In this document: positions 34,097 to 64,000 of the stretch, piece after piece
Layout: each line of letters starts with the position of its first letter
Numbering within the stretch: the stretch's first letter is position 1
Assembly (NCBI GenBank): GCA_963756595.1
Contig: CAVWOZ010000040.1
Span: 81-64,080, forward strand
DNA from: an uncultured Acidobacteriota bacterium
GTDB taxonomy: Bacteria; Acidobacteriota; Thermoanaerobaculia; Multivoradales; UBA5704
DNA: 64,000 nt
Reading direction: 5' to 3'
Program-made: the position numbers and the translations under genes
Notes under the pieces: model-generated
Seen by the model: only the letters and a program-made list of their open reading frames with translations
What the model was told of the DNA's origin: nothing
Database searches by the model: none

Positions 34097-37000
34097 ATGA
34101 GCCAAGAGAGCAGCCCGGGGGCGACTCTGATCGAGATGTTGCGCAACCGGGCCGAGCGGCGGGGGGACGATCTCTCCTACACGTTCCTGCTCGACGGCGA
34201 GACGGCGGAAGCCCACCTCACCTATGCCGAGCTCGACCGGCGGGCTCGCGGCCTCGCCGCGACCCTGGCGCGGGAAGGGATCGCCCCAGGTGAGCGCGTG
34301 CTCCTCCTCTATCCGCCGGGGCTCGACTACATCACGGCCTTCTTCGGCTGCCTCTATGCCGGGGCGGTGGCGGTCCCCGCCTACCCGCCGCGGTCGCGCC
34401 GTCCGTCGGCGCGCCTGGCCTCGATCCAGGAGAGCGCCGGGGCCCGCGCGGTGCTGGCTCCCGCGGCGGTGCTCGCCGGGCTCGACCGCCAGCTCGAGCG
34501 CCCCGCGGGGGTCCTCTGGCTCGCCGCCGAGGGAGAGACGCTTTCCGAAGGCGCCGAGGAGTGGCGGCACCCGGGAGTCGACGGCGAGGCGCTCGCCTTC
34601 CTCCAGTACACCTCCGGCTCCACGGCGGCCCCCAAGGGGGTGATGCTCCGCCACGCCAACCTGCTCGCCAACCTGGAGCAGATCCGCCTCGCCTTCGCGC
34701 AGACGGCGCAGGAGCGGACGGTGATCTGGCTGCCGCCCTACCACGACATGGGGCTGATCGGCGGCATCCTCACCCCACTCTACGTGGGGAACCCGGCGGT
34801 CCTCCTGTCGCCGGTCTCGTTCCTCCAGCGCCCCTTACGCTGGCTGCAGGCGATCTCGCGCCACCGCGGCACCACCAGCGGCGGCCCCAACTTCGCCTAC
34901 GACCTCTGCGTCGAGAAGATCGGCCCCGCCGAGCGCGAAGCGCTCGACCTCTCGAGCTGGACCCTGGCGTTCAACGGCGCCGAGCCGGTGCGCGCCGAGA
35001 CCCTCGAGCGCTTCGCCGCGGCCTTCGCGCCCTGCGGCTTCCGCGCCGAGGCGTTCCTCCCCTGCTACGGGCTGGCCGAGGGGACCCTCCTCGCCGCCTC
35101 CGGCCGGCGCGGCGCCGGCGCCGCGGTCGCCGCCTTCGCGGCCGGCGAGCTCGAGCGCCACCGCGCGGTGCCGGCGGATGGTGCCGAGGCCGCCCGCGTC
35201 CTGGTCGGCGCCGGCACGCCCCCGGAGGGCGCGCGGCTGTTGGTCGTCGACCCCGAATCGGGGGCCCTCCGCGGCCACGGCGAGGTGGGGGAGATCTGGA
35301 TCGCCGGGCCGGCGGTGGCCGCCGGCTACTGGGACCTCCCGGAGGTCACGGCGGCGAGCTTCGGCGCCCGCACGGCGGATGGCGACGGCCCGTTCCTGCG
35401 CACCGGTGACCTCGGCTTCCTGGGCGCCGGCGGTGAGCTGTTCGTCACCGGCCGGCAGAAGGACCTGATCATCCTGCGCGGCAGGAACCACTATCCGCAG
35501 GACCTCGAGCTGACCGTCGAGCGCAGCCATCCGGCGCTGCGCCCCGGCTGCGGCGCCGCCTTCACGGTGGACGCCGATGCTGGCGGCGGCGAGCAGCTGG
35601 TGGTGGTGCAGGAGGTGCGGCGCGAGCAGCGGCGCGACGACCCGGCCGAGATCGTGGCCGCCATCCGCCGCGCGGTCGCCGAGGAGCACGAGGTGACGGT
35701 CCACGCCGTCGTCCTGCTGCGCCCGGCGACCCTCCCCAAGACGACCAGCGGCAAGGTGCAGCGCGCCGCGACCCGCGCCCGCTATCTCGAAGGGACCCTC
35801 GACGCGCTCGACGCCTGGCAGGCGCCGGCCGCCGAGGCGCTGGCTGCCGACGAGGCCGCCGCGGACGAGCCGGAGGACTTCACCACGCCCGCCGGGGTCG
35901 GCCGCTGGCTGGCCGCCCAGGTGGCGGCGCGGGCGGCGGTCGCCCGCCGCGAGATCGAGCTCGACCAGCCGCTCGCCCACTACCCGCTCGACTCGCTGGC
36001 CGCCATGGAGCTGATGCACGCCGTCGAGTCGCGCTTCGGGGTGACGCTGTCGATGGAGAGCTTCTTCGCCGGCGCGAGCCTGGCCGAGCTGGCGGATACG
36101 ATCTTCGAGCGCGCGGCGAGCTCGACGGCGCCGCTCCCCGGCGCCCCCGCGGCGGTGGACCCGGTGGGGGACCACCCGCTGTCGCGCGGCCAGCAGTCGC
36201 TCTGGTTCCTCCACGCCCTCGACCCCGCGGGGTCGGCCTACAACGTGACCAGCGCGGTCAGGGTGCGCGGCGAGCTCGAGGTGGCGGCGCTCCAGGCGTC
36301 GATCGCGGCGCTGGTCGACCGCCACCCGGTGCTGCGCACCACCTTCCCGACCTCGCGCGGCGAGCCGGTGCAGCGGGTCCACCCGGCGGGGAGCCCGGCG
36401 TTCATCCCGGCGCTCGGCGAGACCGACGCCCAGGGGTGGAGCGATCACCGCCTGGCCGACTACCTGGCGGCCGAGGGACGGCGCCCGTTCGACCTCGAGC
36501 GCGGGCCGCTGATGCGGGTGGTCCTGCTCACCCGCTCGGCGCTCGAGCACGTGCTGCTGCTGTCGATGCACCACATCGTCACCGACTTCTGGTCGCTCGG
36601 GCTGCTGCTCGACGACCTGGCGCTGCTCTACCCGGCGCTCAAGGGGGGCGGGAGGGCGACGCCCCCCGCGCTCCCCTCGCCGGGGCTCGCCTACACCGAC
36701 TACGTGCGCTGGCAGGAGGAGCTGCTGGCGAGCCCTCCGGGCGAGGAGCTGTGGGAGTACTGGCGGACGCGCCTCGCCGGCGAGCTGCCGGTCCTCGACC
36801 TCCACACCGACCGGCCCCGCCCGCGGGTGCAGACCTACGAGGGGGCGGCGGTGCAGCTCCACCTGCAACCCCACCTCTCGGCGCGGATCAAGGCGCTCGG
36901 GCGGCGGCGCGAGGCGACCCCGTTCGTCACCCTGCTCGCCGCCTTCGAGACGCTGCTCCACCGCTACACCCGGCAGGACGACCTGCTGGTCGGCTCGGTG

Positions 37001-40000
37001 ACCGCCGCCCGCACCCGCGCCGGCTTCGCGCGCACGCTCGGCTACTGCGTCAACCCGCTGGTGTTGCGCGCCGACTTCGGTGCCAGTGGCATGGGCGCCA
37101 GCGGCGGCGAGGACCCCGGCTTCGCGGAGATCCTCGGCCGCACGCGGGCCGACGCGCTCGGCGCCTTCGAGCACCAGGACTTCCCCTTCCCGCTCCTCGT
37201 CGAGCGGCTGCAACCGCAGCGCGATCCCGGCCGCTCCCCCCTCTTCCAGGTGATGTTCGTGCTCCAGAAGGCGCAGCTCGCCGACGGCCAGGAGCTCACC
37301 GCCTGCGCCCTCGGCGAGCCGGGGGCCTACGCCAACGTCGGCGGCCTGCGGCTCGAGATCGTGCCGCTCGAGCAGCGCATCGCCCAGTTCGACCTCACCC
37401 TCACCATGGGGGAGGTGGGGGAGGCGTTCGTCGCCTCCTTCGACTACAACGTGCAGCTCTTCGACGCCGCGACGGTCGGCCGCTGGGCGCGCCACTTCGA
37501 GCGGCTGCTCGCGGGGATCGCCGAGCATCCGGAGGCGCCCGTCTCGGTGCTGCCGCTGATGACCGCCGAGGAGGAGCGGCAGCTGATCGCGGTGTGGAAC
37601 GACACCGGGATCGAGTTCCGCCACGAGGCGACGCTCGCCGACCTGCTCGCCGAGCAGGCGGCGCGCACCCCCGAGGCGACCGCCCTGCTGTTCGGCGGCG
37701 ACCGGCTCACCTACGGCGAGCTCGACCGCCGCGCCAACCGGGTGGCGCGCCGCCTGCGCGCTCTCGGCGTCGCCCCCGAGTCGCGGGTCGCCGTCTGCCT
37801 CGAGCGCTCGCCGGCGCTGATGGTGGCGCTGATCGGCGTCCTCAAGGCCGGCGGCGCCTACCTCCCCGTCGACCCCGAGACGCCGCGCGGCCGGGTCGCC
37901 TCGCTGCTCGACAGCGCCGGGGTGGAGGTCGTGATCACCGAGGAGCGCCTGCGCGCGCTGATCGAGACGGACGAAGCACCGCCGGCCGGGTTGCGGCTGC
38001 TCGCCCTCGACAGCGGCTGGGCGGAGATCGCCCGCGAGAGCGATTCGCCGCTCGCCCAGACCGCGCTGTCGGCGACGGCGACCAACCTCGCCTGCGTCAT
38101 CTACACCTCGGGCTCGACCGGCATCCCGAAGGGGGTCCTGCTCACCCACCGCAACCTGGTCAACCTGGTCGCCTCGTTCCTCGGCAGCTACGCGCCGGGA
38201 CCGGCGGACCGCATCCTGCCGCTGACCGCGATCGGCTTCGCCAGCTTCGTGGGGGAGATCTTCCCCCTGCTCTGCGCCGGCGGCACCCTGGTCCTCCCCG
38301 AGCGCGCCGAGCTGCTCGACGTCTCGGCGCTGGTCGACCTGATCGGCCGCCACGAGGTGTCGATCGTCTCGACCGTGCCGTCGATGATGGCCTCCCTGAA
38401 CTCGTTGCGCGACCGGCTGCCGCGGCTGCGGCTGCTGCTGGTCGGCGGTGAGGCGCTGTCGGCGGGCGACGTCGACAAGCTGCTCGGCAGCGCGCGGATC
38501 GTCAACGGCTACGGCCTGACCGAGACCAGCGTCTGCTCGACCTGCCACACGGTCACCGCGGCCGACCTCGTCCCGGGGGTGATCCCGCCGATCGGCCGGC
38601 CGCTGATGAACCACCGGGTCCACCTGCTCGACCGCTCGTTCCAGTCGCTGCCGGTCGGCTGCCCGGGGGAGATCTACGTCGCCGGCGACGGCCTCGCCCG
38701 CGCCTACCTGGGCGACCCCGCCGCCACCGCCGAGCGCTTCCTCCCCGACCCCTGGGACACCGGCGGGCGGATGTACCGCACCGGCGACCTCGGCCTGCTG
38801 CGCTCGGACGGCGAGCTGATCTACCTCGGCCGCGTCGACCAGCAGGTCAAGCTGCGCGGCTTCCGCATCGAGCTGGCGGAGATCGAGTCGGTCCTCGCCC
38901 TCCACCCGCGGGTCAGGGAGAGCTGCGTCACCGTGCGCAACGACGGCGGCGAGGCGCAGCTGGTCGCCTACCTGGTGCCGGAGCAGGGGGAGTCCCCCCA
39001 CCCTCCAACGGTCGGCGAGCTCCTCGCCTACCTGCGCGAGCGGCTGCCGGACTACATGGTGCCGGCGGCGCTGGTGACCCTCAGGGCGCTGCCGCTCACC
39101 CTGAACGGCAAGGTCGACCTCACGCTCCTGCCGGCGCCGGACCGCTCCCGGCCGTCGCTCGCCAGCGCCTACAGCGCGCCGCAGAGCGAGCTCGAGCGCA
39201 CCATCACCGCCGCCTGGCAGGCGGAGCTGAACGTCGAGGCGGTGGGGGTGGACGACAACTTCTTCGACCTCGGCGGGCACTCGCTACGCATGGCGAAGGT
39301 GCACGCGCGCCTCAAGGAGGCGTTGGGCCGCGAGATCTCGCTGATCGAGCTCTTCCAGTACCCGACCGTCTCCTCGCTCGCCCGCCATCTGTCGGGCGCC
39401 GCGGACGCCGCGACGGCGGAGGGGGGAGCTCAGGTCTCCCGCCGCGCCCGCTCGCAGCACCCGCAGCAAGCGGCGGGCGGCCACGTCGACATCGCCATCG
39501 TCGGCATGGGCGGGCGCTTCCCGGGCGCCAAGGGGGTGGAGGAGCTGTGGCGCAACGTCGCCGGCGGGCGCGAGGGGATCACCTTCTTCACCGCCGAGGA
39601 GCTGCTGGCGGCGGGGGTCGACCCCGCCATGGTGGCCAACCCGAACTACGTGCGGGCCAAGGGGATCCTCGGCGACGTCGATCTCTTCGACGCCGCCTTC
39701 TTCGGCCTCAACCCGCGCGAGGTCGAGCTGATGGACCCCCAGCACCGGATCTTCCTCGAGATCGCCTGGGAGGCGCTCGAGCACGCCGGCTGGGACTCCG
39801 ACCGCTTCCCCGGGCTGATCGGGGTGTACGCGGGGATGAGCATGAACACCTACATGATCATGAACCTCCTCCCCCACATGGAGCTGGTCGCCTCGGTCGA
39901 CACCCTGCAGGCGTCGCTCGGCAACGACAAGGACCCGCTGACCTCGCGGATCTCCTACAAGCTGAACCTGAAGGGGCCGAGCGTCACCATCCAGAGCGCC

Positions 40001-43000
40001 TCGTCGACCTCGCTGGTGGCGGTCCATCAGGCCTGCCAGGCGCTCCTCCAGCACGACTGCGACATGGCGCTCGCCGGCGGCGTCTCGATCCACCTGCCGG
40101 AGGCATCGGGCTACCTCTACCAGGAAGGGGGGACGACGGCGCGCGACGGCCACTGCCGCGCCTTCGACGCCGCAGCCACCGGCTTCGTCTCCGGCCACGG
40201 CGCCGGCGTAGTGGTGTTGAAGCGCCTCGCCGACGCGCTCGCCGACGGCGACACCGTCTACGCCGTGATCAAGGGGTCGGCCTGCAACAACGACGGCTCG
40301 CTCAAGGTCAGCTTCTCGGCGCCGTCGGTCGAGGGGCAGGTCGACGTCTACAGGCAGGCCTACGCCAACGCCGGCGTCGATCCGCGCACCGTCTCCTACA
40401 TCGAGTGCCACGGCACCGGCACGGCGCTCGGCGATCCGATCGAGATCGCCGCCCTGTCGCGGGTGTTCGCGGACGGGCGGGAAGGAGGGGACGGCCGCCG
40501 CAACTACTGCGCGATCGGCTCGCTGAAGACCAACATCGGCCACCTCGACACCGCGGCCGGCGTCTGCGGCCTGATCAAGGCCGCCCTCGCTCTCCATCAC
40601 GGGGCGATCCCGCCGAGTCTCCACTTCGAGAGCCCCAACCCGCGGATCGACTTCGCGGGGAGCCCGTTCTTCGTCAACACGGAGCTGCGCCCCTGGCCGG
40701 CCGGGCTCCGCCGCGCCGGCGTCACCTCGCTGGGCATGGGCGGGACCAACGCCCACGTGGTCCTCGAGGAGGCCCCCGCGGCGACGCCGGAAACGGCGGC
40801 CAGCGGCTCGCGCCCGCACCAGCTCCTGCTCCTCTCGGCGAAGAGCGCCGCCGCCCTCGAGCGCGCGACGGCGCGCCTCGCCGACCGCCTGCGCGAGGGG
40901 GTCGAAGGGGAGCCGGGGCTCGACCTCGCGGACGTCGCCTTCACCCTCACCCACGGGCGCAAGCCCTTCCAGCACCGCCGGGCGCTCCTCGCGAGCGACC
41001 TCGCCGACGCCGCGACGGCGCTCGAGACCCTCGACCCCGAGCGCCTGCTGACCACCGCCCCCGAGGCCGGCGACCGGCCGGTCGCCTTCCTGTTTCCCGG
41101 GCAGGGGGCGCAGTACCTCGGCATGGGGCGCGGCCTCTACGATTCCGAGCCGGGCTTCCGGGCCGACGTCGACCTCTGCTGCCGGCTCCTCCTGCCGCAT
41201 CTCGGCCTCGACCTGCGCCAGGTGCTCTTTCAGGAGGAGGACGAGGCGGCGGCCTCCGAGCGCCTGCAGGGGACGCAGCTCGCACAGGCCGCCCTCTTCG
41301 TCGTCTCCTGGGCGACGGCGCGGCTCTGGCTGAGCTGGGGGGTGCGCCCGGAGGCGATGCTCGGCCACTCGATCGGCGAGTACGTGGCGGCCTGCCTGGC
41401 CGGCGTCTTCTCGCTCGAGGACGCGCTCGCGGTGGTGGCGGTGCGCGGCCGGCTGATGAGCCAGATGCCGCCGGGGGCCATGCTCGGCGTGCCGCTCCCC
41501 GAGGCCGAGGTGCTGCCGCTCCTCGGCGAGGAGCTGTCGCTCGCCGCCGTCAACCGCCCGTCGGTGTCGGTGGTGTCGGGGCCGGTCGAGGCGATCGAGG
41601 AGCTGTCGGCGCGGCTCGCCCTCCAGGGGCTCACCTGCCGGCGCCTCCACACCTCCCACGCCTTCCACTCGCGGATGATGGAGCCGGTGCTCCAGCCGTT
41701 CGTCGAGCAGGTCAAGCGGGTGCGCCTCGAGCCGCCGCGGCTGCCGTTCCTGTCGAACGTCACCGGCACCTGGATCCGCCCCGAGGAGGCGACCGACCCG
41801 GCTTACTGGGCGCGCCAGCTCCGCCAGGGGGTGCGCTTCGCCGACGGCGTCGCCCTGCTGCTCGCCGAGCCGCACCGCATCCTGCTCGAGGTGGGGCCGG
41901 GGAACACCCTGTCGACCCTCGCCCGCCAGCACCCGGCGGCGGGGGCGGGGCACGCGATGACCCCCTCCCTGCGCCACCCCAAGCAGGCGGAGCCGGACGC
42001 GGCGGTGCTGCTCCAGGCCGTGGCCCGCTTCTGGCTCGCCGGCGGCGAGATCGACTGGACGGGGTTCTGGGCCGGCGAACGGCGCCGCCGGCTGGCGCTG
42101 CCGACCTATCCGTTCGAGCGCCGGCGCTACTGGGTCGATCCGCTCCCCAGGAGCGCCGCGCCCAAAAAGTCGAAGGGGCGGCGCGGCGATCCGGCCGAAT
42201 GGCTCTACGCGCCGGTCTGGAAGCAGTCGCGCCTGCCGCTGGCGCCCGTTGAGAAGACGGCGGCCGAGAACGAGACCTGGCTCCTCTTCCTCGACGCCGC
42301 CGGCCTCGGCGAGGCGCTCGCGGCGCGGCTCGAGCGGGACGGGCGGACGGTCGTCCGCGTGGCGGCGGGGGAGTCCTTCTCGCGCGGTCCCTCGGGCTTC
42401 ACCGTGGCGCCGGGGAAGCGGGCGGACTACGACGCCCTGCTCGACGCGCTCGGCCGCAACCCTGCCCACGTCCTCCACCTGTGGAACGCCGGCGACGCGC
42501 CCGACGCTCCAGATACCCTCGACGCCGCCCTCGACCGCTCCTTCTACAGCCTGGTCTTCCTGGCCCAGGCGCTCGCGCGGCAGAGCGCGACCGACCCGAC
42601 GGCGATCACCGTGGTGTCGACCGGCCTCGCCGAGGTCACCGGCGAAGAGGCGCTCGATCCACGCCGCGCGGCGCTGCTCGGCCCCGTCGAGGTCGTCCCG
42701 CGCGAGTACCCGAGCCTCACCTGCCGGAGCCTCGACGTCACGCTCGGCAATGCGGCGGCGCTGGACCGCACGGCCGGGCTGATCCTCGCCGAGATCGGCC
42801 GCGGCACTCCCGGCGATGGCCACGGCGAAGCGCCGACGGTCGCCTTCCGCGGCAGCCTGCGCTGGGTCCGCGTCCACGAGCCGGTGCCGCTGCCGGCCCC
42901 GGCGCCCGATGCCGCGCCGGTGCTGCGCCCGCGCGGCGTCTGCCTGATCACCGGCGGCATGGGGGGGCTCGGCCTCGAGCTCGCCGAGCACCTCGCCCAG

Positions 43001-46668: not shown

Positions 46669-46678
46669 GAGACGAGGG

Positions 46679-53092
<6,414 letters not shown>

Positions 53093-53099
53093 GAGAGCC

Positions 53100-56000
53100 T
53101 TGGCGACCCCCGACAGCACCGTCCACGAGCTCTTCGCCGCGCAGGCGAGGCGGACGCCGCGCGCCGTAGCCCTCGCTTCGGACGACGAAGCGATCACCTA
53201 CGCGGAGCTCGAAAAGCGGTCGAACCGCCTGGCGCGCCGCCTCGCGTCCCTCGGCGTCGGCGCCGAGGTGCGGGTGGGGCTCTGCCTCGACCGCTCGCTC
53301 GACCGCGTGGTGGCGACCCTCGCCATCCTCAAGGCCGGCGGCGCCTACGTGCCGCTCGATCCCAACTACCCCGCGGCGCGTCTCGACTACCTGCTACGCG
53401 ACACCGCCGCGCCGGTGGTGATCGCCGACGAGCGCGGGCGCGCGGTGCTGCCGGCGACCGCGGCGATCGTTCTCTCCTTGGATCTCGAACGCGAGGCGCT
53501 GGCGGCGGAGAGCCCCGAGGCGCTGGCGGAGGAGCGGAGCGCCGGTCCGGACGGCCTCGCCTACGTCATCTACACCTCGGGCTCGACCGGCCTTCCCAAG
53601 GGGGTCGCCGTCCGCCATCAGAGCATCGTGCGGCTGGTCACCGACTGCCGCTACGCCCATCTCGGCCCGGACGAGGTGCTGCTCCAGCTCTCCCCCTTCT
53701 CCTTCGATCCCTCGACCTTCGAGATCTGGGGGGCGCTGCTCAACGGCGGTCGCCTGGTGATGCCGCCGCCGGGGACCCTGTCGCTGGCGGCGATCGGCGA
53801 GATCGTCGCCCGCCACCGGGTGACCACCCTCTGGCTCACCTCCGGCCTCTTCCACCAGATGGTGGAGACCGACCTCGCCGCGCTGCGCCCCTTGCGCCAG
53901 CTGCTGGCGGGGGGAGACGCGCTGTCGGCGCCGCGCTGCCGGCGGGTGCTCGCGGAGCTGCCGGGGACGCGGCTGATCAACGGCTACGGCCCGACCGAGA
54001 GCACCACCTTCGCCGCCTGCGCCGCCCTGACCGACCCGGCGCAGCTCGAGCCGTCGGTGACGATCGGCGTGGCGATCCCGGGGACCACGATCGACCTCCT
54101 CGACGGGAATCTCGGGCGCGTGGCGGCCGGGGAGGCGGGGGAGATCTTCATCGGCGGCCGCGGCCTCGCCCGCGGCTACCTCGACCGGCCGGCGCTCACC
54201 GCCGAGCGCTTCGTGCCGCACCCCTTCGGCGCCCCCGGCGAGCGCCTCTACCGGACGGGGGACCTCGCCCGCTTGCGGGCCGACGGCGAGCTGGAGTTCC
54301 TGGGGCGCATCGACGGCCAGCTCAAGGTGCGCGGCTTCCGCATCGAGCCCGAGGAGGTCGAGGCGGCGCTCCTCGTCCATCCCTGGGTGCGCGACGCGGC
54401 CGTGCTGGTGATCGCCCACCCCCGGGGGGACAAGCAGCTGGCGGCCTGCGTGGTTCTGGCGGAGAAGACGCTGGCGGAGGCGGCGAACGGCGGGGAGGAC
54501 CTGGCCGCCGAACTGCGGCCGTTCCTGGGCGCCCGGCTGCCGGAGCCGCTGGTCCCGTCGCTCTACCGCGCCCTCCCTGAGCTGCCGCTGACCGCCAACG
54601 AGAAGGTCGACCGCCGGGCGCTGGCCCGCCCCGAGCTGTGGGCGGAGCCCGAGGTTCCGGAGCCGAGCCATCAACGCCGAGATCCCGTCCACGAGCTGCT
54701 CGCCGGGATATGGGCGGAGGCGCTGGGGCGGCCCCTGGGGAGCGGGGACCTCCCCTTCCTCGCGCTCGGCGGCCATTCCCTCCAGGCCACCCGGGCGCTG
54801 GCGCGGGTGCGGGCGGCGCTGGGGGTCGATCTGCCGGTCTCCGCTCTGCTGGAGGCGCCGGGCCTCGCCGCCTTCGCCGCGGAGGTTGAGCGGGAGCTCG
54901 CCGCCGGCCGGCCGCCGCTCCCCGCAATTACCCCCCGCGGCGCCCGTCCGGCGCCTCCGCAGACCGGCGAGCCGCTCTCCTCCGGGCAGCGCCGCCTCTG
55001 GTTCCTAGACCGCCTCGACCCCGGCTCGCCGGCGCACAACATCCCTCTCGCCATCGACCTCGACGGCCCGTTGGACGTCGCGGTGCTGGAGCGGAGCCTC
55101 GACGCCATCGCCGCCCGCCAGGAGGCGCTGCGCACCCTCCTCGACGCCGGCGCCGACGGCGAGCCGGTGCAGATCGTCGCGGCGCCCGCGCTTCGACCGC
55201 TCCCGCTCGTCGACCTCGCCGCCCTGCCGCCGGCGCGGCGGGACGCCGAACGGCTCCGCCTGACGGGAGAGGAAGCGCGCCGCCCCTTCGACCTCACGCC
55301 GGGGAGCCGCAGGCCGCTTTGGCGCGCCTTCCTGGTCCGTTCGACGGAAGGGGAGCACCGCCTCCTCGCCACCTTCCACCACGCCGTCTTCGACGGCGAG
55401 TCGATCGCCGTGCTTGAGCGCGAGCTGGCGGCGGTCTATCCGGCCCTGCTCGCCGGCGGGGAATCGCCCTTGCTATCTCTCACCGTGCAGCCGGCGGACG
55501 TGGCGGCCTGGCAGCGCCGCTGGCTGAACCCTGAGACGCTGGCCCCCCATCTCGCCTACTTCCGGGAGCGGCTCGCGGGGGTGCCGGCGGCGCTCGACCT
55601 GCCGGCCGATCGCCCGCGCCCGTCCCGGCGCACCGGCCGCGGGGTGAGCCGCGATCTCGCGATCCCTCCCGCGCTCGACCGCGGGGTGCGCGAGCTGGCG
55701 CGCCGGGCCGGCGCCACGACCTTCATGACCCTGCTCGCCGCCTGGGCGGCGTTCCTCCGCCGGGTGACTGGCCAGGAAGACCTCGTCATCGGGTCGGTGC
55801 TGGCGCACCGCGACCGCCCTGAGCTCGAGGAGCTGATCGGCTTCTTCGTCAATACCCTGCCCCTACGCGTAGCGAGCGCCGGCGACCCGCCGTTCCTGGA
55901 TCTTCTCGGCACGGTGCGCGCCGCGGCGCTCGGCCTCTACGCCCACCAGGATCTGCCGCTCGAGCAGCTGCTCGACAAGCTGCGCCCGGCCGGCGGCCTG

Positions 56001-59000
56001 CCCCTCCTCCAGGCGGTCCTCGCGCTGCACCACAACGGCGGCCGGCGCGAGCTGGCCCCGGGTCTGACGATGGCGTGGCACGAGGAGGACACCGGCGCCG
56101 CGCAGTTCGACCTCCTGCTCGACCTCGAGGAGCGGCCGGAGGGGCTCGCCGGTCGGCTGGTCGCGAGCGCCGACCTGTTCACCCCGGCGGCCGTCGAGCG
56201 CCTCGCCCGCGGCTGGGAGACCCTGCTGGCCGGCGCCGTGGCGACGCCGGAGGCGCTCGTCTCGGACCTCCCGCTGTTGAGCGAGACCGAGCGGCAGACC
56301 CTGCTCGCCGACTGGGGGCGCTCCGGCGAGGAACCGGCGTGGAGCGGTTCGGTGCCGGCGCGGATCGCGGCCCTGGCGGGCGCCGACCCGGAGGCCGTCG
56401 CCGTTCTGCCGGCCGACCCCGCCGCGCCGCCGCTGACCTACGGCGAGCTGGCCGCCCGCGCCGGCCGCCTCGCCCGCCATCTGCGGGAGCGCGGCGTGGG
56501 GCGGGGAGTCCTGGTCGGGGTCTACGCCGAGCGGGTGCCGGAGACAGTGATCGGCCTCCTCGCCGTGCTCGCCGCCGGCGGCGCCTTCCTCCCCCTCGAC
56601 CCGACGTTCCCGCCCGAGCGGCTGGAGCTGATCCTCGCCGACGCCCGCGTCTCGCTGCTCCTCGCCCGGGGCCCCCTGGCAGCCACGCTGCCGAGCGGGG
56701 GAGCGGAGGTCGTGCTGCTCGACGAAGCACCCGCGGAATCGCCAAGCGCCGGCCCGCTGCCAGAGGTCGAGCCGGGCGACCTCGCCTACGTCATCTACAC
56801 CTCGGGATCGACCGGCCGTCCCAAAGGGGTGCTGATCCCGCACCGCGGCTTCCTCTGGGCGATCGAGGGGCTGGCGGCTCGCTCGCGGCTGGGTCCGGAG
56901 TCGCGCGTCCTGCAGACCGCCTCGGCGAGCTTCGACGCCTCGGTGTGGGAGACCTGGAGCGCCCTGATCCGCGGCGCCACGCTGGTCATAGGCAGCCGCG
57001 AGGAGATCCTCCCCGGCGCGCCGCTCCTCGCCACGCTGCGCGAGCGTGGGATCACCAACATGTTCCTCCCCCCCTCGGCGCTGGCGGCGATGCCGGAGGG
57101 GGCGAGTCGCGAGCTTTCCGGCCTGGTCAGCCTGGTGGTGGGAGGCGAGGCCTCGTCCCCCGAGTTGGTGGCGCGCTGGGCCCCCGGGCGGCGGCTGTGG
57201 AACGCCTACGGGCCGACGGAGGCGAGCATCTGCGCCACCATGGCGCGGTTGGGGGAGGACGGCGAGACTCCCATCGGGCGGCCGATCGCCGACAACCGCC
57301 TGCTGGTGCTCGGCCGTCACGGCGAGATCGTCCCGCCGGGGGTGGCCGGCGAGCTGTACCTCGGCGGGCGCGGCCTCGCCTTCGGCTACCTCGGCCGGCC
57401 GGACCTCACCGCCGCGGCCTTCGTCCCCGACCGTTTCTCCCACGACGCCGGGGCGCGCCTCTACCGCACCGGCGACCTCGTCCGCTTCCGCGCCGACGGC
57501 CAACTCGAGTTCCTGGGGCGCGCCGACCAGCAGGTCAAGGTGCGCGGCTTCCGCGTCGAGCCCGGGGAGATCGAGGCGCAGATCGCCGAGCACCCGCAAG
57601 TCCGCGAGGTGGCGGTCATCCCCTGGGCGGCGGCAGCCGGCGACCTCCGCCTCGCCGCCTACGTGGTGATGGCGGGCCCCGATGCGAGCCTCGACGAGCT
57701 GCGCGCCTTCCTGCGCGCCCGCCTGCCGGCCCACATGATCCCTTCGGCCTTCCGGACCCTGCCGGCGATGCCGCTCGCCCCCAGTGGCAAGATCGACCGC
57801 CGCGCTCTGCCGCCGCCGCTGACAACGGACGCGGACGAAGCACCCTCCGCGGAAGGATTCGTCCCGCCGGGAACGCCGACCGAGGAGCTGCTGGCCGGGA
57901 TCTGGGGAAAGGTGCTGGGGCAGTCCGGGATCGGCGCCGGCGACGACTTCTTCGACCTCGGCGGCCACTCCCTCCTCGTCGGGCAGGTGCTCGCCCGGGT
58001 GCGCGCCGCCTTCGGCGTCGAGCTGCCGGTGCGCGCGGCCTTCGAGGCCCGCACCCTGGCGGCGCTGGCGGCGCGGATCGAGGCGGGGCTCAAGCACGAC
58101 TCCGCGCGCCCGCCGCTCTTCCGCGCCGCGCATGGCGTCGGCTCGGAGCCTCCGCCGCTCTCCTTCGCCCAGCAGCGCCTCTGGTTCCTCGACCGCCTGG
58201 AGCCGGGATCGCCGCTCTACAACCTGCCGGTGGTGCTCCGCCTCGCCGGCCCGCTCGACGCGGCGTCGCTGGAGCAGGCCATCGACGAGGTCTTCCGGCG
58301 TCACGAGGCGCTGCGCACGACGTTCACCGAAGTTGGAGGCGAGCCTCGGCAGATCGTGGCGCCGTTCCAGCCGCCGGGGCTGCCCCGCGTCGACCTCTCG
58401 GGGCTGCCGTTGGCGGCGGCCCGCTCCGAGGCGGCGAGGCTGGCGGCGCGGGAGGCGCGCCGCCCGTTCGACCTCGCCCGCGGACCCGTGGCGCGCGCCT
58501 CGCTGCTGGGCCTCGACGCTCGCGAGCACCACCTCTTCTTCTTCGTCCACCACGTCGCCTTCGACGGCTGGTCGGTCGAGGTGCTGCGGCGGGAAATGGG
58601 CGCGCTTTACTCGGCGTTCACGGCAGGCAAGGCCTCGCCGCTCGCCGAGCCGGCGTTTCAGTACGGCGACTTCGCCGTCTGGCAGCGCGGCTGTCTCGCC
58701 GGCGCGGCGCTCGAGGCGCAGCTCGCCTACTGGCGGCAGCGGCTCGCCGGCGCGCCCTCCCTCCTCGAGCTGCCGGCCGACCGGCCGCGCCCCCCGGTCC
58801 GGAGCTTCCGTGGCGCCACCCTGCCGCTGGCCTTCCCGGCGGGGCTCACGGCGGCTCTCCGGGCCCTGGCGCGGAGCGAAGGGGCAACCCTCTTCATGAC
58901 CGGCCTCGCCGCCTTCTCGGCCCTCCTCGGCCGCTTCACCGGCCAGACCGACCTGGTGGTGGGCGCTCCCGTCGCCAACCGCGCCGAGGCCGGGATCGAG

Positions 59001-62000
59001 GGGATGGTCGGCTTCTTCGTCAACACTCTCGCCCTGCGCGCCGACCTCGCCGGCGACCCGCCCTTCCGCGCCCTCCTCGGCCGGGTGCGCGAGTCGGCGC
59101 TGGCCGCCTGGGCCCACCAGGACCTCCCCTTCGAGCGCCTGGTCGAGGAGCTGCAGCCGGACCGCGACCCGTCGCGGAGCCCGCTCTTCCAGGTCCTCTT
59201 CTCCCTCGATCCGTCGCGGGGGAGCGAGCTGGCGCCGGGTCCTCAGCGAATCGCCTGCGAATTGCTGCGGATCGACACTAAGACGTCCAAGTTCGACCTT
59301 TCGCTCTTCCTCGACGACGGCGAGACGGGGCTGACCGCCCTCCTCGAATACGCCGGCGACCTCTTCGACCCCGCCACGGCGATGCGGCTCGGGCGTTCCT
59401 TCCAGCACCTCCTCGCCGGCCTGGCGGCGGAGGGAGCGGGCTTGCAGCTCTCAGCGCTGCCGCTGCTGGACGCCGGGGAGCGCTGGCAGATCGTCGGCGA
59501 GTGGAACGAGCCGGGCCCCGGCCTGACCGAGGAGACCTGCCTCTACGACCTGGTGGCCGCCCAGATGGCGCGCACCCCGGAGGCGACGGCGCTCGTCTTC
59601 GGCGAGGAGCGCCTCACCTACCGCGAGCTGGGCGCCCGCGCCACGCGGATGGCGCGGCGGCTCGCCGCGCTCGGCGTCGGACCCGAGGTGCGGGTGGGGG
59701 TCTGCCTGTCGCGCACGCCGGCGCTGGTCGCCACCCTGTTCGGCATCGTCCAGGCCGGTGGCGCCTACGTGCCGCTCGACCCCTCCTATCCCTCGGAACG
59801 GCTGGGCTTCATGCTCGACGACGCCGGACCCGCCGTCCTGGTCACCGAACGGGCGCTGGCGCCGCGGCTGCCCGCCTGCGGCGCCCGCCTCCTGGTGCTC
59901 GACGACGAGAATGGGGAAGAGGGTACGGCCGAGGCGACGCCCCGTCGCCCGCTGGCGGACAACCTCGCCTACCTGATCTACACCTCGGGGTCGACCGGGC
60001 GGCCGAAGGCGGTGGCGATCGCGCACCGCAACGCCGTGGCGCTCGTCCGCTGGTCGCACGCCATGTGGAGCCCGGCGGAGATGGCCGCGGTCCTCGGCTC
60101 GACCTCGATCTCGTTCGACATGTCGGTCTTCGAGCTGTTCGCCACCCTCTCGATGGGCGGCCGGGTGATCCTGGTCGAGAACATCCTGGCGCTGGCCGAC
60201 CTCCCCGACGACAGCGGCGTGACGCTGATCAACACCGTCCCCTCGGCGCTTGCGGCAATGACCGAGGTCGTGCGCGCGCTGCCGCCGACGGTGCGCACGG
60301 TGAACCTCGGCGGCGAGCCGCTCAAGGGGGCGTTGGCGCAGGCTCTCTACACCCCGGGGGTCGAGCGGGTGGTCAACCTCTACGGCCCGTCGGAGGACAC
60401 CACCTACTCGACCTTCGAGGTGGTGGAGAAGGGGAGCCGTCGCGAGCCGACGGTCGGCCGGGCGATCACGGGGAGCTGGATCCGCCTGCTCGACCGCGAC
60501 CTCGCGCTGGTCCCGATGGGGGTGGCCGGCGAGGTCTATCTTGGGGGCGCCGGCCTCTCCCGCGGCTACTTCGGCCGCCCCGAGCTGACCGCCGCCCGCT
60601 TCGTCCCCGATTCGCTGCCGGACGCCGCGCCCGGCGCGCGCCTCTATCGCACCAGCGACCTGGCGCGCTTCCTCCCCGACGGCCGCCTGGACTACCTGGG
60701 GCGCCTCGACCACCAGGTCAAGGTGCGCGGCATCCGCATCGAGCTGGGAGAGATCGAGGCAGCGCTGACGGCGATCCCCGGCGTGCGCGAGGCGGTGGTG
60801 GTGGCGCTCGGCGAGCCCGGGGGCGACCGCTCCCTCGCGGCCTACGTTGTGGCGGAGGACGGGGCGACCCTCACGGCCGGCGAGCTGCGCGATGCCCTCC
60901 GCGCCCGCCTCGCCGAGCCGATGGTCCCCTCGACGTTCACCCTCCTCGCGCGGCTGCCGCTGTCGCCGAACGGCAAAGTGGACAGGAAGGCGCTGCCGGC
61001 CCCCGACGCCTCGCCGGAGGCCGGGCCAGCCGCGGCGCGCGGCGCCGTCGATCCGCGGGTCGAGATCCTGGCCGGGATCTGGGCCGAGGTGCTGGGGCGC
61101 GACGACCTCCCCGGCCCCGACGAGAATTTCTTCGAGCTGGGCGGCCACTCCCTCCTCGCCACCCGCGTGGCCTCGCGGATCCGCGCCGCGTTCGGCGTCG
61201 AGCTGCCCCTGCGCGCCCTCTTCGCGGCGCCGACCCTCGCGGCCCTGGACGCCGCCGTGGCGGCGCACCAAACCGCGGCAGAAAACGCGGCCGAAGGCGC
61301 GGTGGCCGACGTTCCGATCACGGCCACAGCCGATCGCGCGGACCTCCCCCTCTCCTTCTCGCAGCAGCGCCTCTGGCTGCTCGACCAGCTCGAGCCCGGC
61401 TCGCCGGTCTACAACCTGCCGCAGCCGTTCCTCCTCCGCGGCCCCATCGACGCCGCCGCGCTGACCGCGTCGCTCGCCGAGGTGGTCCGCCGCCACGAGG
61501 TGCTGCGGACGACCTTAGCCGCGGCTGGAGATGGCGAGCCGCGGCTGGTGGTGGCCGCGCCCGGCGCGTTCCCCCTCCCTCGCGTCGACCTCACGGCATT
61601 GCCGGAGCCGGCGCGTACGGCCGAGGCCGTCCGGCTGAACGACCGCGAAGCCGCGGCGAGCTTCGATCTGTTGCGCGGGCCGCTCTTCCGGGCGACGCTG
61701 CTGCTCCTCGCTTCCGGCGAGCACCACCTGCTGCTCGCGATGCACCACATCGCGGGCGATGGCTGGTCGATCGAGGTCCTGCTGGCGGAGCTCTCGGCGC
61801 TCTATCAGGCGTTCGCCGCGAGGCGGCCTTCGCCGCTGCCGGAGCTCGCCCTCCAGTACGCCGACTACGCAGCCTGGCAGCGCCGCTGGCTCGCCGGCCC
61901 GCTGATGGATGCCCAGCTCGCCTACTGGCGGGGGCGGCTCGCCGGCGCCCCCGAGGCACTCGATTTGCCGACCGACAAGCCGCGCCCGGCGGTCGAGACC

Positions 62001-64000
62001 TCGCGCGGCGCCGTGCTCACCCGCGCGCTGCCGCCGGCCCTCGCCACCGCCGTGCGTCTTCTCTCCCGGCGGCAGGGGACGACCCTCTTCATGACCGTGC
62101 TGGCGGCCTTTGCGGCGCAGCTCCAGCGCTACGCCGGCGCCGACGACCTCCTCCTCGGCTCGCCGGTCGCCAACCGCGGCCGGGGTGAGATCGAGGGGCT
62201 GATCGGCTTCTTCGTCAACCTGCTGGTGCTGCGCGTCGACCTCGCCGGCGAGCCGGACCTCGCGACCCTCCTCGCCCGCGTCCGCGAGACGGCGCTCGGC
62301 GCCTACGCCCATCAGGACGTGCCGTTCGAGCGCCTGGTCGAGGAGCTGGCGCCGCAGCGCAGCCTGGCGAGGAGCCCCCTGTTCCAGGTGCAGCTCGTGC
62401 TCGGGGTCGGGGAGCGCTCGCGCGAGCTGGCCCCCGGGCTGCCGATGACCCCGCTGCCGGTCGAGAACCGCACCGCCAAGTACGACCTCACCCTCGGCCT
62501 CGACGTCGACGGGAATGGCCTCCTCGCCACCCTCGAGTACCGCACCGACCTCTTCGAGACGGCCACCATGGCGCGCTGGCTGGGGCACTTCGAGGCCCTT
62601 CTGAGTGCGATGGTGACGATGACGGAAGGGCCGGTGCTGGCCCTGCCGTTCCTCGCCCTGCCGGAGCGCCAGATCCTGCTCCACGAGTGGACCGACACCG
62701 CGGATGTCACAGGGGGCGAGCCGGGGGAGCTGATCCACGCCTTCTTCGAGCGCCAGGCCCGGCGCACCCCGGAGGCGATCGCCCTGGTGGCCGGCGACAC
62801 CGGGCTCACCTACGCCCAGCTCGACGCGGCGGCCAACCGCCTGGCCCGCCACCTGCGCGCCCTCGGGGTGGGGCCTGAGGTGCCGGTGGCGGTCTGCCTC
62901 GAGCGCACCGCGGAGCTGGTGGTGGCCCTCTTCGCCATCCTCAAGGCCGGCGGCGCCTACGTGCCGATCGACCCGGCGTACCCGGAAGCGCGCCGGCGGG
63001 TCCTGATGGCCGACTCCCGGGCCGCCTTCGCCCTCACCAGCGAGAAGCTCCTGCCGCTCCTGGCCGGCGGCACCGCTCGGGCCGTCTGCCTCGACGGCGC
63101 GGCGGAAGGAGACGCGGTCGCCGCGCAAAGCGCGGACCCTCTGCCGCCGCTCACTTTCCCCGGCAGCCTGGCCTACCTGATCTACACCTCGGGGTCGACC
63201 GGGCGTCCCAAGGGGGTGGCGATCGAGCACCGCAGCGTCGCCGTACTGATCCACTGGACTCGCGCCACGTTCAGCTCCGCGGAGCTGGCGGGGGTGCTCG
63301 GCTCGACCTCGATCTGCTTCGACATGTCGGTCTTCGAGATCTTCGGCACCCTCGCCTGGGGCGGGACCGTCCACCTGGTCGACAACGCCCTCGCCCTGGC
63401 CGCGATGCCCGCGGAGGAGAAGCGCCGGCTGACGCTGATCAACACCGTCCCCTCGGTGATGGCCGAGCTGGTCCAGCTCGGCGCCGTGCCGGCCACGGTG
63501 CGCACGGTGAACCTGGGTGGCGAGGCGGTGCCGCAGGGGCTGGTCGACCGCCTCTTCGCGCCGGGAACCGTCGAGCGGGTGATCAACCTCTACGGTCCCT
63601 CCGAGGACACCACCTATTCGACGTGGGCTTCCTTGGCGAGCGGCGTGGCGCCGACGATCGGGCGCACGGTGACCGGCTCCCGCGCCTACGTCGTCGACCG
63701 CCGGCTGGCCCTCGCCCCGTTGGGCATCCCCGGCGAGGTGGTGCTCGCCGGTGCCGGCCTCTCGCGCGGTTATTACGGACGCCCGGAGCTGACCGCCGAG
63801 CGCTTCCTCCCCGATCCCTTCGCGGGCCAGCCGGGGGGGCGGATCTACCGCACGGGCGACCTGGCGCGGTATCGGATGGATGGCGAGCTCGACTACCTGG
63901 GGCGGATCGATCACCAGGTCAAGCTGCGCGGCTTCCGCATCGAGCTGGGGGAGGTCGAGGCGGTGCTCGCCTCCCACCCGGCGGTCGAGCGGGCGGTCGC
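53100..64000 (+). CDS. multimodular NRPS (A-PCP-C-A-PCP-C-A-PCP-C-A...), truncated by the window end
   Basis: Not in the ORF track, consistent with no stop before the window end. Manual translation from TTG 53100 (MATPDSTVHELFAAQ) gives four YTSGSTG A domains, three GGHS PCPs, and C motifs HHAVFDG (~55377), HHVAFDG (~58548) and HHIAGDG (~61743), all in one frame. Confidence 0.92.
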   Translation, partial: MATPDSTVHELFAAQARRTPRAVALASDDEAITYAELEKRSNRLARRLASLGVGAEVRVGLCLDRSLDRVVATLAILKAGGAYVPLDPNYPAARLDYLLRDTAAPVVIADERGRAVLPATAAIVLSLDLEREALAAESPEALAEERSAGPDGLAYVIYTSGSTGLPKGVAVRHQSIVRLVTDCRYAHLGPDEVLLQLSPFSFDPSTFEIWGALLNGGRLVMPPPGTLSLAAIGEIVARHRVTTLWLTSGLFHQMVETDLAALRPLRQLLAGGDALSAPRCRRVLAELPGTRLINGYGPTESTTFAACAALTDPAQLEPSVTIGVAIPGTTIDLLDGNLGRVAAGEAGEIFIGGRGLARGYLDRPALTAERFVPHPFGAPGERLYRTGDLARLRADGELEFLGRIDGQLKVRGFRIEPEEVEAALLVHPWVRDAAVLVIAHPRGDKQLAACVVLAEKTLAEAANGGEDLAAELRPFLGARLPEPLVPSLYRALPELPLTANEKVDRRALARPELWAEPEVPEPSHQRRDPVHELLAGIWAEALGRPLGSGDLPFLALGGHSLQATRALARVRAALGVDLPVSALLEAPGLAAFAAEVERELAAGRPPLPAITPRGARPAPPQTGEPLSSGQRRLWFLDRLDPGSPAHNIPLAIDLDGPLDVAVLERSLDAIAARQEALRTLLDAGADGEPVQIVAAPALRPLPLVDLAALPPARRDAERLRLTGEEARRPFDLTPGSRRPLWRAFLVRSTEGEHRLLATFHHAVFDGESIAVLERELAAVYPALLAGGESPLLSLTVQPADVAAWQRRWLNPETLAPHLAYFRERLAGVPAALDLPADRPRPSRRTGRGVSRDLAIPPALDRGVRELARRAGATTFMTLLAAWAAFLRRVTGQEDLVIGSVLAHRDRPELEELIGFFVNTLPLRVASAGDPPFLDLLGTVRAAALGLYAHQDLPLEQLLDKLRPAGGLPLLQAVLALHHNGGRRELAPGLTMAWHEEDTGAAQFDLLLDLEERPEGLAGRLVASADLFTPAAVERLARGWETLLAGAVATPEALVSDLPLLSETERQTLLADWGRSGEEPAWSGSVPARIAALAGADPEAVAVLPADPAAPPLTYGELAARAGRLARHLRERGVGRGVLVGVYAERVPETVIGLLAVLAAGGAFLPLDPTFPPERLELILADARVSLLLARGPLAATLPSGGAEVVLLDEAPAESPSAGPLPEVEPGDLAYVIYTSGSTGRPKGVLIPHRGFLWAIEGLAARSRLGPESRVLQTASASFDASVWETWSALIRGATLVIGSREEILPGAPLLATLRERGITNMFLPPSALAAMPEGASRELSGLVSLVVGGEASSPELVARWAPGRRLWNAYGPTEASICATMARLGEDGETPIGRPIADNRLLVLGRHGEIVPPGVAGELYLGGRGLAFGYLGRPDLTAAAFVPDRFSHDAGARLYRTGDLVRFRADGQLEFLGRADQQVKVRGFRVEPGEIEAQIAEHPQVREVAVIPWAAAAGDLRLAAYVVMAGPDASLDELRAFLRARLPAHMIPSAFRTLPAMPLAPSGKIDRRALPPPLTTDADEAPSAEGFVPPGTPTEELLAGIWGKVLGQSGIGAGDDFFDLGGHSLLVGQVLARVRAAFGVELPVRAAFEARTLAALAARIEAGLKHDSARPPLFRAAHGVGSEPPPLSFAQQRLWFLDRLEPGSPLYNLPVVLRLAGPLDAASLEQAIDEVFRRHEALRTTFTEVGGEPRQIVAPFQPPGLPRVDLSGLPLAAARSEAARLAAREARRPFDLARGPVARASLLGLDAREHHLFFFVHHVAFDGWSVEVLRREMGALYSAFTAGKASPLAEPAFQYGDFAVWQRGCLAGAALEAQLAYWRQRLAGAPSLLELPADRPRPPVRSFRGATLPLAFPAGLTAALRALARSEGATLFMTGLAAFSALLGRFTGQTDLVVGAPVANRAEAGIEGMVGFFVNTLALRADLAGDPPFRALLGRVRESALAAWAHQDLPFERLVEELQPDRDPSRSPLFQVLFSLDPSRGSELAPGPQRIACELLRIDTKTSKFDLSLFLDDGETGLTALLEYAGDLFDPATAMRLGRSFQHLLAGLAAEGAGLQLSALPLLDAGERWQIVGEWNEPGPGLTEETCLYDLVAAQMARTPEATALVFGEERLTYRELGARATRMARRLAALGVGPEVRVGVCLSRTPALVATLFGIVQAGGAYVPLDPSYPSERLGFMLDDAGPAVLVTERALAPRLPACGARLLVLDDENGEEGTAEATPRRPLADNLAYLIYTSGSTGRPKAVAIAHRNAVALVRWSHAMWSPAEMAAVLGSTSISFDMSVFELFATLSMGGRVILVENILALADLPDDSGVTLINTVPSALAAMTEVVRALPPTVRTVNLGGEPLKGALAQALYTPGVERVVNLYGPSEDTTYSTFEVVEKGSRREPTVGRAITGSWIRLLDRDLALVPMGVAGEVYLGGAGLSRGYFGRPELTAARFVPDSLPDAAPGARLYRTSDLARFLPDGRLDYLGRLDHQVKVRGIRIELGEIEAALTAIPGVREAVVVALGEPGGDRSLAAYVVAEDGATLTAGELRDALRARLAEPMVPSTFTLLARLPLSPNGKVDRKALPAPDASPEAGPAAARGAVDPRVEILAGIWAEVLGRDDLPGPDENFFELGGHSLLATRVASRIRAAFGVELPLRALFAAPTLAALDAAVAAHQTAAENAAEGAVADVPITATADRADLPLSFSQQRLWLLDQLEPGSPVYNLPQPFLLRGPIDAAALTASLAEVVRRHEVLRTTLAAAGDGEPRLVVAAPGAFPLPRVDLTALPEPARTAEAVRLNDREAAASFDLLRGPLFRATLLLLASGEHHLLLAMHHIAGDGWSIEVLLAELSALYQAFAARRPSPLPELALQYADYAAWQRRWLAGPLMDAQLAYWRGRLAGAPEALDLPTDKPRPAVETSRGAVLTRALPPALATAVRLLSRRQGTTLFMTVLAAFAAQLQRYAGADDLLLGSPVANRGRGEIEGLIGFFVNLLVLRVDLAGEPDLATLLARVRETALGAYAHQDVPFERLVEELAPQRSLARSPLFQVQLVLGVGERSRELAPGLPMTPLPVENRTAKYDLTLGLDVDGNGLLATLEYRTDLFETATMARWLGHFEALLSAMVTMTEGPVLALPFLALPERQILLHEWTDTADVTGGEPGELIHAFFERQARRTPEAIALVAGDTGLTYAQLDAAANRLARHLRALGVGPEVPVAVCLERTAELVVALFAILKAGGAYVPIDPAYPEARRRVLMADSRAAFALTSEKLLPLLAGGTARAVCLDGAAEGDAVAAQSADPLPPLTFPGSLAYLIYTSGSTGRPKGVAIEHRSVAVLIHWTRATFSSAELAGVLGSTSICFDMSVFEIFGTLAWGGTVHLVDNALALAAMPAEEKRRLTLINTVPSVMAELVQLGAVPATVRTVNLGGEAVPQGLVDRLFAPGTVERVINLYGPSEDTTYSTWASLASGVAPTIGRTVTGSRAYVVDRRLALAPLGIPGEVVLAGAGLSRGYYGRPELTAERFLPDPFAGQPGGRIYRTGDLARYRMDGELDYLGRIDHQVKLRGFRIELGEVEAVLASHPAVERAV

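Follow-up and report, generated by a model that had tools for sequence, protein, structure and literature searches.

Which compound is made by the large megasynthase operon in a 64,000-nucleotide stretch (the window) of contig CAVWOZ010000040.1, from an uncultured Acidobacteriota bacterium of the class Thermoanaerobaculia? Three long plus-strand frames, termed P1, P2 and P3, fill positions 34046-64000 of the window and encode nonribosomal peptide synthetase (NRPS) and polyketide synthase (PKS) modules. An earlier note, written from the letters without database searches (the sequence-only reading), had described an acylated peptide-polyketide hybrid, and this description of a fatty-acid-primed NRPS/PKS hybrid is supported here. 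Beyond that, one module of P1 was found to resemble ClbH and ClbI, which act in E. coli in the synthesis of the genotoxin colibactin. Based on sequence comparison, we propose with a probability of roughly 70% that the operon makes a lipidated aminocyclopropane-polyketide-peptide, namely an N-acylated aminocyclopropane-polyketide-pentapeptide. The predicted product probably contains a colibactin-type cyclopropane ring.

A ClbH/ClbI-type cassette in P1

The evidence lies in the middle of P1, in an adenylation (A) domain, its peptidyl carrier protein (PCP) and the ketosynthase (KS) that follows. Upstream are a fatty acyl-AMP ligase (FAAL), an acyl carrier protein (ACP) and a condensation (C) domain, and downstream an acyltransferase (AT), a ketoreductase (KR) and a second ACP. 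SAM stands for S-adenosylmethionine.

34121..36145, plus strand: FAAL domain (aa 26-590) and ACP (aa 625-700, Ser650), from NCBIfam and Pfam including PF23024
36173..37585, plus strand: starter C domain, motif HHIVTDF (aa 842), Pfam Condensation E 2e-97
37649..39391, plus strand: SAM-type A domain and PCP (Ser1746), code ASGSLGGVCK, A5 motif NGYGLTE
39488..40630, plus strand: KS with Ser1986 (nt 40001-40003) at the position of the catalytic Cys, His kept in ECHGTGT and NIGH
41087..44050, plus strand: AT (GHSIGE, HAFH), KR and ACP (Ser3293), from Pfam and alignment

Other Pfam matches of P1 were AMP-binding (E 1e-157) and ketoacyl-synt (E 8e-73). The positions of the A-domain codes were set by motif anchors, in what we take to be PheA numbering. 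All six codes that had been read by hand earlier gave the same letters on re-reading. At the Asp235 position the P1 A domain carries Ala1399 (nt 38240-38242). The sequence-only reading had called this code merely odd, which missed its identity as the SAM code of ClbH-A2 with a ClbI-type serine KS next to it. In one alignment the codes of P1 and of ClbH-A2 from E. coli CFT073 (ASGSLGGICK) were identical at 9 of 10 positions. Both A domains also share an unusual form of the A5 motif, NGYGLTE, with Leu for Pro, and ClbH (8xjz_C) was a PDB match of P1 with 575 bits.

The KS was compared in the same way, with clbH and clbI both taken from E. coli CFT073. It matched PDB entry 8xjy with 529 bits, placing Ser1986 opposite Ser178. 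This entry is ClbI, as its local sequence is the same and its serine is also numbered 178. A literature search returned no paper naming PDB entries 8XJY, 8XJU, 8XJZ or 8XBL. Over 893 aa the KS-AT part of P1 is 51% identical to ClbI, compared to 41% for the KS-AT part of P2, and HAFH is found in the AT of P1 and of ClbI alike. The combination of SAM-code pocket and serine KS occurs once in the genome. According to section 3.2.1 of a review (PMC10491745), ClbH loads SAM on a carrier and ClbI cyclizes the tethered acyl-SAM. The review's account of ClbI gives Ser178 in place of the conserved Cys and an inactive Ser178Ala mutant, and treats the mechanism from SAM to aminocyclopropane in colibactin as still open (PMC10491745).

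By every sequence membership test run, the P1 A domain and serine KS thus classify as a ClbH/ClbI-type cassette. Since the ClbH-A2 code and the ClbI-type KS stand together, one module has a characterized counterpart in colibactin synthesis. This modifies the earlier remark that the architecture was not recognized as a characterized cluster. That remark holds insofar as all named NCBIfam equivalogs stay below their cut-offs throughout the operon, but it does not hold for this module.

The N-terminus of P1 had its best NCBIfam matches in FAAL families (PRK05850 with 434 bits, FadD32 with 396 bits and another with 405 bits), all below the whole-protein cut-offs. Its FAAL is fused to an ACP and then to a C domain, as in FAAL lipoinitiation, and the PvdL-type model PRK05691 covers P1 positions 9-1123, with a match at positions 9-657 for the FAAL and its ACP. 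The HH..TDF variant of the starter C domain is common to three related genomes (G014, G003 and G006). In the C-terminal half, the KR has GGMGGLG and Tyr3129, without LDD and without the Trp motif.

Co-occurrence of the pocket code and the serine ketosynthase

Among the best 120 database homologues of the P1 KS-AT part, 33 have Ser and 87 have Cys at the catalytic position. A tree of 121 KS domains grouped all but one of its 33 serine KSs, ClbI and P1 among these 32, in one clade with a support of 1.0; the remaining one (P0046) was placed among the Cys-KSs. The serine of P0046 may be an independent change or an error. In the first loci collected, Ser was kept in the P1-like KS of 8 out of 8.

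We then collected 47 A-PCP-KS junctions from relatives, excluding that of P1. Seventeen combined ASGSLGG[V/I]CK, NGYGLTE and a serine KS, and were 64-88% identical to P1. The other 30 combined other codes (three of them with alignment gaps) with a Cys-KS, and mixed junctions were not found (0 of 47). Leu in the A5 motif was seen once among these 30 (NTFGLTE).

The pairing was also analyzed in a species scan, using one genome per species and a DNA pattern for NGYGLTE followed by Cys. At least 120 stretches were found, and 80 were taken with flanks. The loci were chosen by the A-domain motif and not by the KS, so that the state of the KS is a fair test. The SAM-type code was present in 62 of these 80 loci. 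A serine KS followed 1.4-1.8 kb downstream in 52 of the 62, a Cys-KS in none, and ten had no KS in reach, seven of them with cut flanks. Two more loci with a partial or variant code also have a serine KS, one of them in a Stenomitos bin (L139, ISGSLGGAC). The hosts include the clb carriers Klebsiella, Erwinia oleae and Pseudovibrio, many Thermoanaerobaculia, Holophagales and Aminicenantes bins, the genera Corallococcus, Archangium, Vitiosangium and Pyxidicoccus, and Herpetosiphonaceae and other Chloroflexota.

In Myxococcota, Chloroflexota and other Acidobacteriota, the pairs of A(SAM-code)-PCP and KS(Ser)-AT-KR-ACP share the code, the serine KS and the 1.4-1.8 kb spacing with P1. Their KS-AT-KR-ACP part has the make-up of the C-terminal half of P1 and is about 60-63% identical to it. 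In contrast to P1, which is one protein, they are often two proteins. No product of these pairs was found in the literature searched.

In three loci of the scan, the 2 kb downstream of a SAM-type code contain no KS: L077 (Ardenticatenaceae bin), L112 (uncultured bacterium) and L119 (Aminicenantes bin). These may be variants that use the SAM-code residue differently.

Organization of the operon

The genome comprises 7.2 Mb in 69 contigs, and the operon lies on a contig of 81 kb. The G+C content of the window is about 70%. That of the genome is about as high, for which reason Candidatus Angelobacter, a genus of about 55% G+C (PMC9723581), was rejected as the lineage. About 5.5 kb of the cluster continue on the contig past the window end, so that the operon consists of six genes over about 35.4 kb. 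Coordinates past the window are those of locus L001.

34046..44191, plus strand: P1 megasynthase, 3381 aa, FAAL-ACP-C(starter)-A(SAM-type)-PCP-KS(Ser)-AT-KR-ACP, from Pfam, motif positions and NCBIfam
44188..46668, plus strand: outer-membrane (OM) protein gene, 826 aa, CBM9_1 and DUF5916 (Pfam)
46679..53092, plus strand: P2 megasynthase, 2137 aa, KS(Cys182)-AT(FAGH, non-canonical)-ACP-C-A(DTEDIGTVTK)-PCP, from Pfam and motifs
53100..64000, plus strand, open at the window end: P3 NRPS, from Pfam and motifs, window-equivalent end 66071
L001:5149-6123, past the window: thioesterase, 324 aa, Pfam PF00975
L001:6120-8555, past the window: penicillin-amidase-family acylase, 811 aa, Pfam PF01804

The six-gene operon is translationally coupled. 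The start codon of the OM protein gene overlaps the P1 stop in an ATGA, and gaps of 10 and 7 nt separate the OM protein gene from P2 and P2 from P3. P3 and the thioesterase gene overlap by 4 nt, as do the thioesterase and acylase genes. Much of the sequence-only reading was borne out by these results. Pfam matches and motif positions reproduced its order of domains (FAAL-ACP-C-A-PCP-KS-AT-KR-ACP, KS-AT-ACP-C-A-PCP and A-T-C repeats), and the tight packing on one strand is reflected in gaps of at most 10 nt or overlaps. Its start of P1, 34097, is the second Met of a frame beginning at 34046. It had advised retrieving the downstream sequence for thioesterase and tailoring genes, and the contig provided the end of P3, the thioesterase and the acylase.

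The complete P3 has 4323 aa and the order A1-T-C-A2-T-C-A3-T-C-A4-T-C, T being the carrier domain; it has no N-terminal C domain. Its codes are DPFWLGGTFK (A1), DAWFVGAICK (A2) and DMFNNGLTYK (both A3 and A4). The terminal C domain has an intact HHSVADG, is 52% identical to the internal C2 and C3 domains and has a tail of about 60 aa behind it. An epimerase or an inactive domain was also considered here and was rejected: the motifs are of the C type, HHSVADG is intact and identity with the internal C domains is 45-52%. The thioesterase contains GWSLG and the Asp and His residues and resembles the Pks13 and EntF thioesterases. In the AT of P2 (window 48308-49195) the specificity motif is FAGH, not HAFH or YASH, and it is kept in G014. 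Near the operon no methoxymalonyl or aminomalonyl genes were found.

Housekeeping genes lie farther out, with those for ValRS, BirA and CoaX upstream and those for ComEC, MiaA and DnaE downstream. Far upstream of the operon the window contains a flavin-dependent type of halogenase-like gene (Trp_halogenase, FAD_binding_3; 2487-4040, plus strand) and a gene for a HEAT-repeat protein (5778-7745, plus strand). A PIN-domain gene (22816-23361, plus strand), with small frames beside it, possibly encodes the toxin of a toxin-antitoxin pair.

Conservation in relatives

All six genes of the operon recur in unchanged order in the complete genome G014, where mtnB and an ARD gene come next. Identities between the two operons are 79% for P1, 74% for the OM protein, 76% for P2, 63% for P3, 63% for the thioesterase and 80% for the acylase. 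The A-domain codes of P1, P2 and P3-A2 are the same in G014, while those of P3-A1, A3 and A4 differ. This pattern of unchanged and varying codes suggests a conserved lipid-cyclopropane-polyketide head and a variable peptide tail.

A second, paralogous type of cluster exists in the genus, with a P1 that is about 59-65% identical. In G003 it continues with C-TE (TE, thioesterase), an acylase, mtnC and mtnB. At the end of the last megasynthase of this G003 cluster (L180:90-1736), the C domain and the TE are fused without a carrier domain separating them. The stand-alone thioesterase of the operon looks like a split form of this fusion.

G014 carries a second cluster of about 60 kb (G014:C1:1682901-1744368; L031, L057) with a DUF5916 barrel gene first and an acylase gene last. 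At its P1-like position an A domain with the code DIFQTALVYK is paired with a Cys-KS, and these two domains appear to have been exchanged together. In G006 a P1-like gene (G006:C1:954899-961264; L009, L013-L015) is 61% identical over aa 18-2948 and 68% over A-PCP-KS. It has the SAM code and a serine KS, lacks both a KR match and a nearby barrel gene, and represents a third architecture.

Acylase, outer-membrane barrel and methionine salvage genes

The acylase matched PF01804 with 782.6 bits (cut-off 21.3). In alignments its Ser262 falls on the first residue of the solved beta chains 4hst_B, 1cp9_B and 1gk9_B, and its N-terminus is hydrophobic; it belongs to the penicillin-acylase N-terminal nucleophile (Ntn) hydrolases. 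Of 21 homologues that are 49% or more identical, 12 lie 17-70 kb downstream of parts of such clusters on one contig, and 9 are on other contigs. By analogy with known systems, the acylase probably deacylates the product in the periplasm.

Between P1 and P2 the sequence-only reading had placed an OM protein, and in kind this was right. The protein has a hydrophobic leader, a Pro/Ala-rich linker, a CBM9-like sandwich and a DUF5916 barrel of about two dozen strands. It belongs to the DUF5916 family, with Pfam scores of 50.7 bits for PF19313 (cut-off 22.6) and 38.1 bits for PF06452 (cut-off 23.4). An AF2 model (pLDDT 85.5, pTM 0.82) showed a beta-sandwich and a large beta-barrel. Foldseek matched the N-terminal domain to CBM9 (1i82, TMt 0.68) and the barrel to generic large OM barrels (LptD, TonB receptors, AlgE and PapC; TM 0.2-0.37). 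Judged by coordinates, 19 of the 25 full-length barrel homologues with at least 41% identity have a listed A-PCP-KS or KS match no more than 10 kb away; for the remaining six, either the contig is short or no match is listed. In G003 three tandem DUF5916 barrel genes, 43-44% identical to that of the operon, stand directly ahead of a SAM-code P1-like gene (G003:C18:1059499-1066259; L016).

Methionine salvage genes flank the operon on both sides:

33084..33827, minus strand: mtnC (acireductone synthase / enolase-phosphatase), directly upstream of P1, TIGR01691 231 bits (cut-off 128), Pfam HAD hydrolase
L001:8583-9825, just after the acylase gene: mtnB (TIGR03328, 212 bits, cut-off 137) and an ARD-family gene (mtnD)

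The genes for MtnA and methylthioadenosine phosphorylase are located elsewhere in the genome. An mtnB-like gene lies less than 2 kb from the acylase gene in five of seven genomes (G000, G014, G003, G019 and G021). Cyclization of SAM releases methylthioadenosine. The flanking mtn genes are suggestive, as they fit SAM cyclization and recycling of methylthioadenosine.

Proposed biosynthesis and alternatives

Our model builds on what the sequences show directly: the order of the domains and their intact motifs, a pocket of the ClbH-A2 type, a KS of the ClbI type and a set of genes that is conserved. The FAAL would activate a fatty acid and load its own ACP. The following A domain, with its ClbH-A2 pocket, would load SAM on the PCP, and the starter C domain would N-acylate it. 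By analogy with ClbH and ClbI, as far as the review outlines their reactions, the serine KS would close the aminobutyryl part to a 1-aminocyclopropane-1-carboxyl unit and free methylthioadenosine. This by-product may be recycled by mtnC, mtnB and mtnD. The KS-AT-KR part of P1 would add one malonate and reduce it to the hydroxyl, and P2 would add a second C2 unit, with the beta-keto group kept. P2 would further add a cationic amino acid (its pocket has Glu and Asp), and P3 four residues, predicted as one Val-like, one aromatic or hydrophobic and two Ala-like. After export, the membrane-anchored Ntn acylase would probably remove the fatty acid in the periplasm, as PvdQ does for pyoverdine precursors, and the DUF5916 barrel would probably carry the product across the outer membrane. 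These two steps are proposed because of the gene linkage and the PvdL/PvdQ precedent. The sequence-only reading had predicted an N-acylated product. Its acylated start agrees with the FAAL-ACP, but the final product may lose the acyl group, as a conserved Ntn acylase closes the operon.

Since P3 starts with an A domain and ends with a C domain, joining and release must depend on that last C domain and on the stand-alone thioesterase, and the assembly line is not simply colinear. A split termination module, made up of the P3 terminal C domain, the P2 A-PCP and the thioesterase, is possible. Such a module would attach the tetrapeptide to the cationic residue via its side-chain amine, with a diamino acid as the branch point. 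Alternatively, the terminal C domain may supply the missing condensation from P2 to P3.

Several observations weigh against the proposed product. Outside the pocket the C-A-PCP part of P1 is only 35% identical to ClbH, and the P1 C domain is no nearer to the C domain of ClbH than to its own paralogues. The relatives are kin and their serine KS loci form one clade, so that the co-occurrence counts represent few independent events. The species scan, for its part, was selected on the A-domain motif NGYGLTE...C rather than on the KS. In P2 the FAGH motif of the AT is non-canonical, and more than one order of joining the P2 and P3 chains agrees with the sequence. The acylase is not a PvdQ equivalog (64.1 bits, cut-off 950), and its nearest solved relative is a D-succinylase. 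Foldseek returned no specific structural relative of the barrel. The mtn genes are housekeeping genes, and mtnB is not near the acylase gene in G010 (24 kb) or G006 (294 kb). Transcripts of the window were sought as well, and none of the 24 RNA runs listed contained the locus.

The strongest competitor of the aminocyclopropane product is an ordinary lipopeptide-polyketide without a cyclopropane, which we consider unlikely. Here, the A domain with Ala at position 235 would load another acid (methionine, a hydroxy acid or a beta-amino acid), and the serine KS would elongate via an oxoester or be skipped. Specificity codes are predictions only, and the low overall identity to ClbH would suit this explanation. 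Serine KSs are also found in polyene PKS loading modules (NysA of nystatin, PimS0 of pimaricin), where no cyclopropane is made. Those are loading modules without an upstream NRPS or a SAM-type A domain. In contrast, nine of the ten pocket residues of P1 are those of ClbH-A2, the code is near constant in 62 loci of several phyla, a SAM-type code was never found with a Cys-KS, and the P1 KS falls within the ClbI clade.

Much less probable is a pyoverdine-like siderophore, with a PvdL-type start, a PvdQ-like periplasmic acylase and the barrel as uptake receptor. The PvdL-type match of the FAAL-ACP-C part, the penicillin-amidase-family acylase at the end of the operon and a barrel of TonB-receptor size all agree with it. 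As stated above, the acylase falls far below the PvdQ cut-off (64 against 950 bits). The barrel protein gave no Pfam match to Plug or TonB_dep_Rec and no TonB-box domain was found; its Foldseek TM to TonB receptors was 0.25-0.37. Hydroxamate, catecholate or chromophore genes are absent from the operon and its flanks. To our knowledge, none of the A-domain codes is of a type for a chelating residue. The remaining explanation, membership in an already characterized family with a MIBiG entry of the same order, is the least probable, as no NCBIfam equivalog reached its cut-off, the best 120 KS-AT homologues are generically named and the full-text literature, with subscription papers beyond reach, describes no such cassette outside colibactin.

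If the aminocyclopropane product is made as proposed, a prodrug-type electrophile with colibactin-like logic can be tentatively considered, although we regard it as rather doubtful. The acyl group would mask the amine. Deacylation by the Ntn acylase in the periplasm would free the amine, which may close on the ketone four atoms away to a spiro-cyclopropyl pyrroline (azaspiro[2.4]heptene) primed for ring-opening alkylation, and the DUF5916 barrel would release the product. The azaspiro[2.4]heptene ring type is seen in precolibactins.

Comparison with known systems

In colibactin synthesis the corresponding parts are ClbH (C-A2-PCP) and ClbI (KS-AT-ACP), and in P1 a C domain would likewise N-acylate the loaded residue before the KS acts. 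The colibactin parts are separate proteins, whereas here they are fused in P1, with FAAL-ACP as the direct primer and a KR behind them. The clb island has aminomalonate genes and thiazole modules. Neither is present in this operon, and aminomalonate genes are also absent from its flanks; in their place the operon has the Ntn acylase and the DUF5916 barrel. The ClbS family (PF08020, DUF1706) had no match in the genome, which is 90.85% complete. Because ClbS, aminomalonate and thiazole parts are missing, the cluster is not a clb island. ClbS has a DinB-like fold. Eight kb upstream of the operon, with housekeeping genes between, an 831-aa frame (24179-26671, plus strand) contains a DinB-family domain at aa 677-828.

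With pyoverdine synthesis (PvdL/PvdQ) the operon shares the FAAL-ACP-C start and an Ntn acylase with a hydrophobic N-terminus. It differs in having PKS modules and a SAM-type module and in lacking chromophore and hydroxyornithine chemistry and a TonB-type receptor. The imidacins, considered as related myxobacterial cyclopropane compounds, are unrelated; in the description at hand they arise by methylenation of an olefin.

In the full-text literature, with subscription papers again beyond reach, the SAM-code/serine KS cassette was described only from colibactin. The closest database proteins have generic names and come from Thermoanaerobaculia metagenome bins, in agreement with the earlier statement that few products have been described from this lineage.

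Implications

In this operon the cassette is fused in one protein, primed by a fatty acid and conserved together with an acylase, an OM barrel and methionine salvage genes. Near-identical pockets with a serine KS occur in many soil lineages, including the culturable Corallococcus and Archangium. With the pairing as a simple rule, cyclopropane-bearing peptide-polyketides can be looked for by sequence, and simpler systems become available in which to study how a serine KS makes a cyclopropane. The large, unstudied DUF5916 family gains a functional context, and the operon offers a concrete entry into the chemistry of a class of Acidobacteria that has scarcely been studied. If the tentative prodrug model were true, colibactin-like cyclopropane warheads, released by an acylase where colibactin uses ClbP, would be widespread in soil Acidobacteria, Myxococcota and Chloroflexota.

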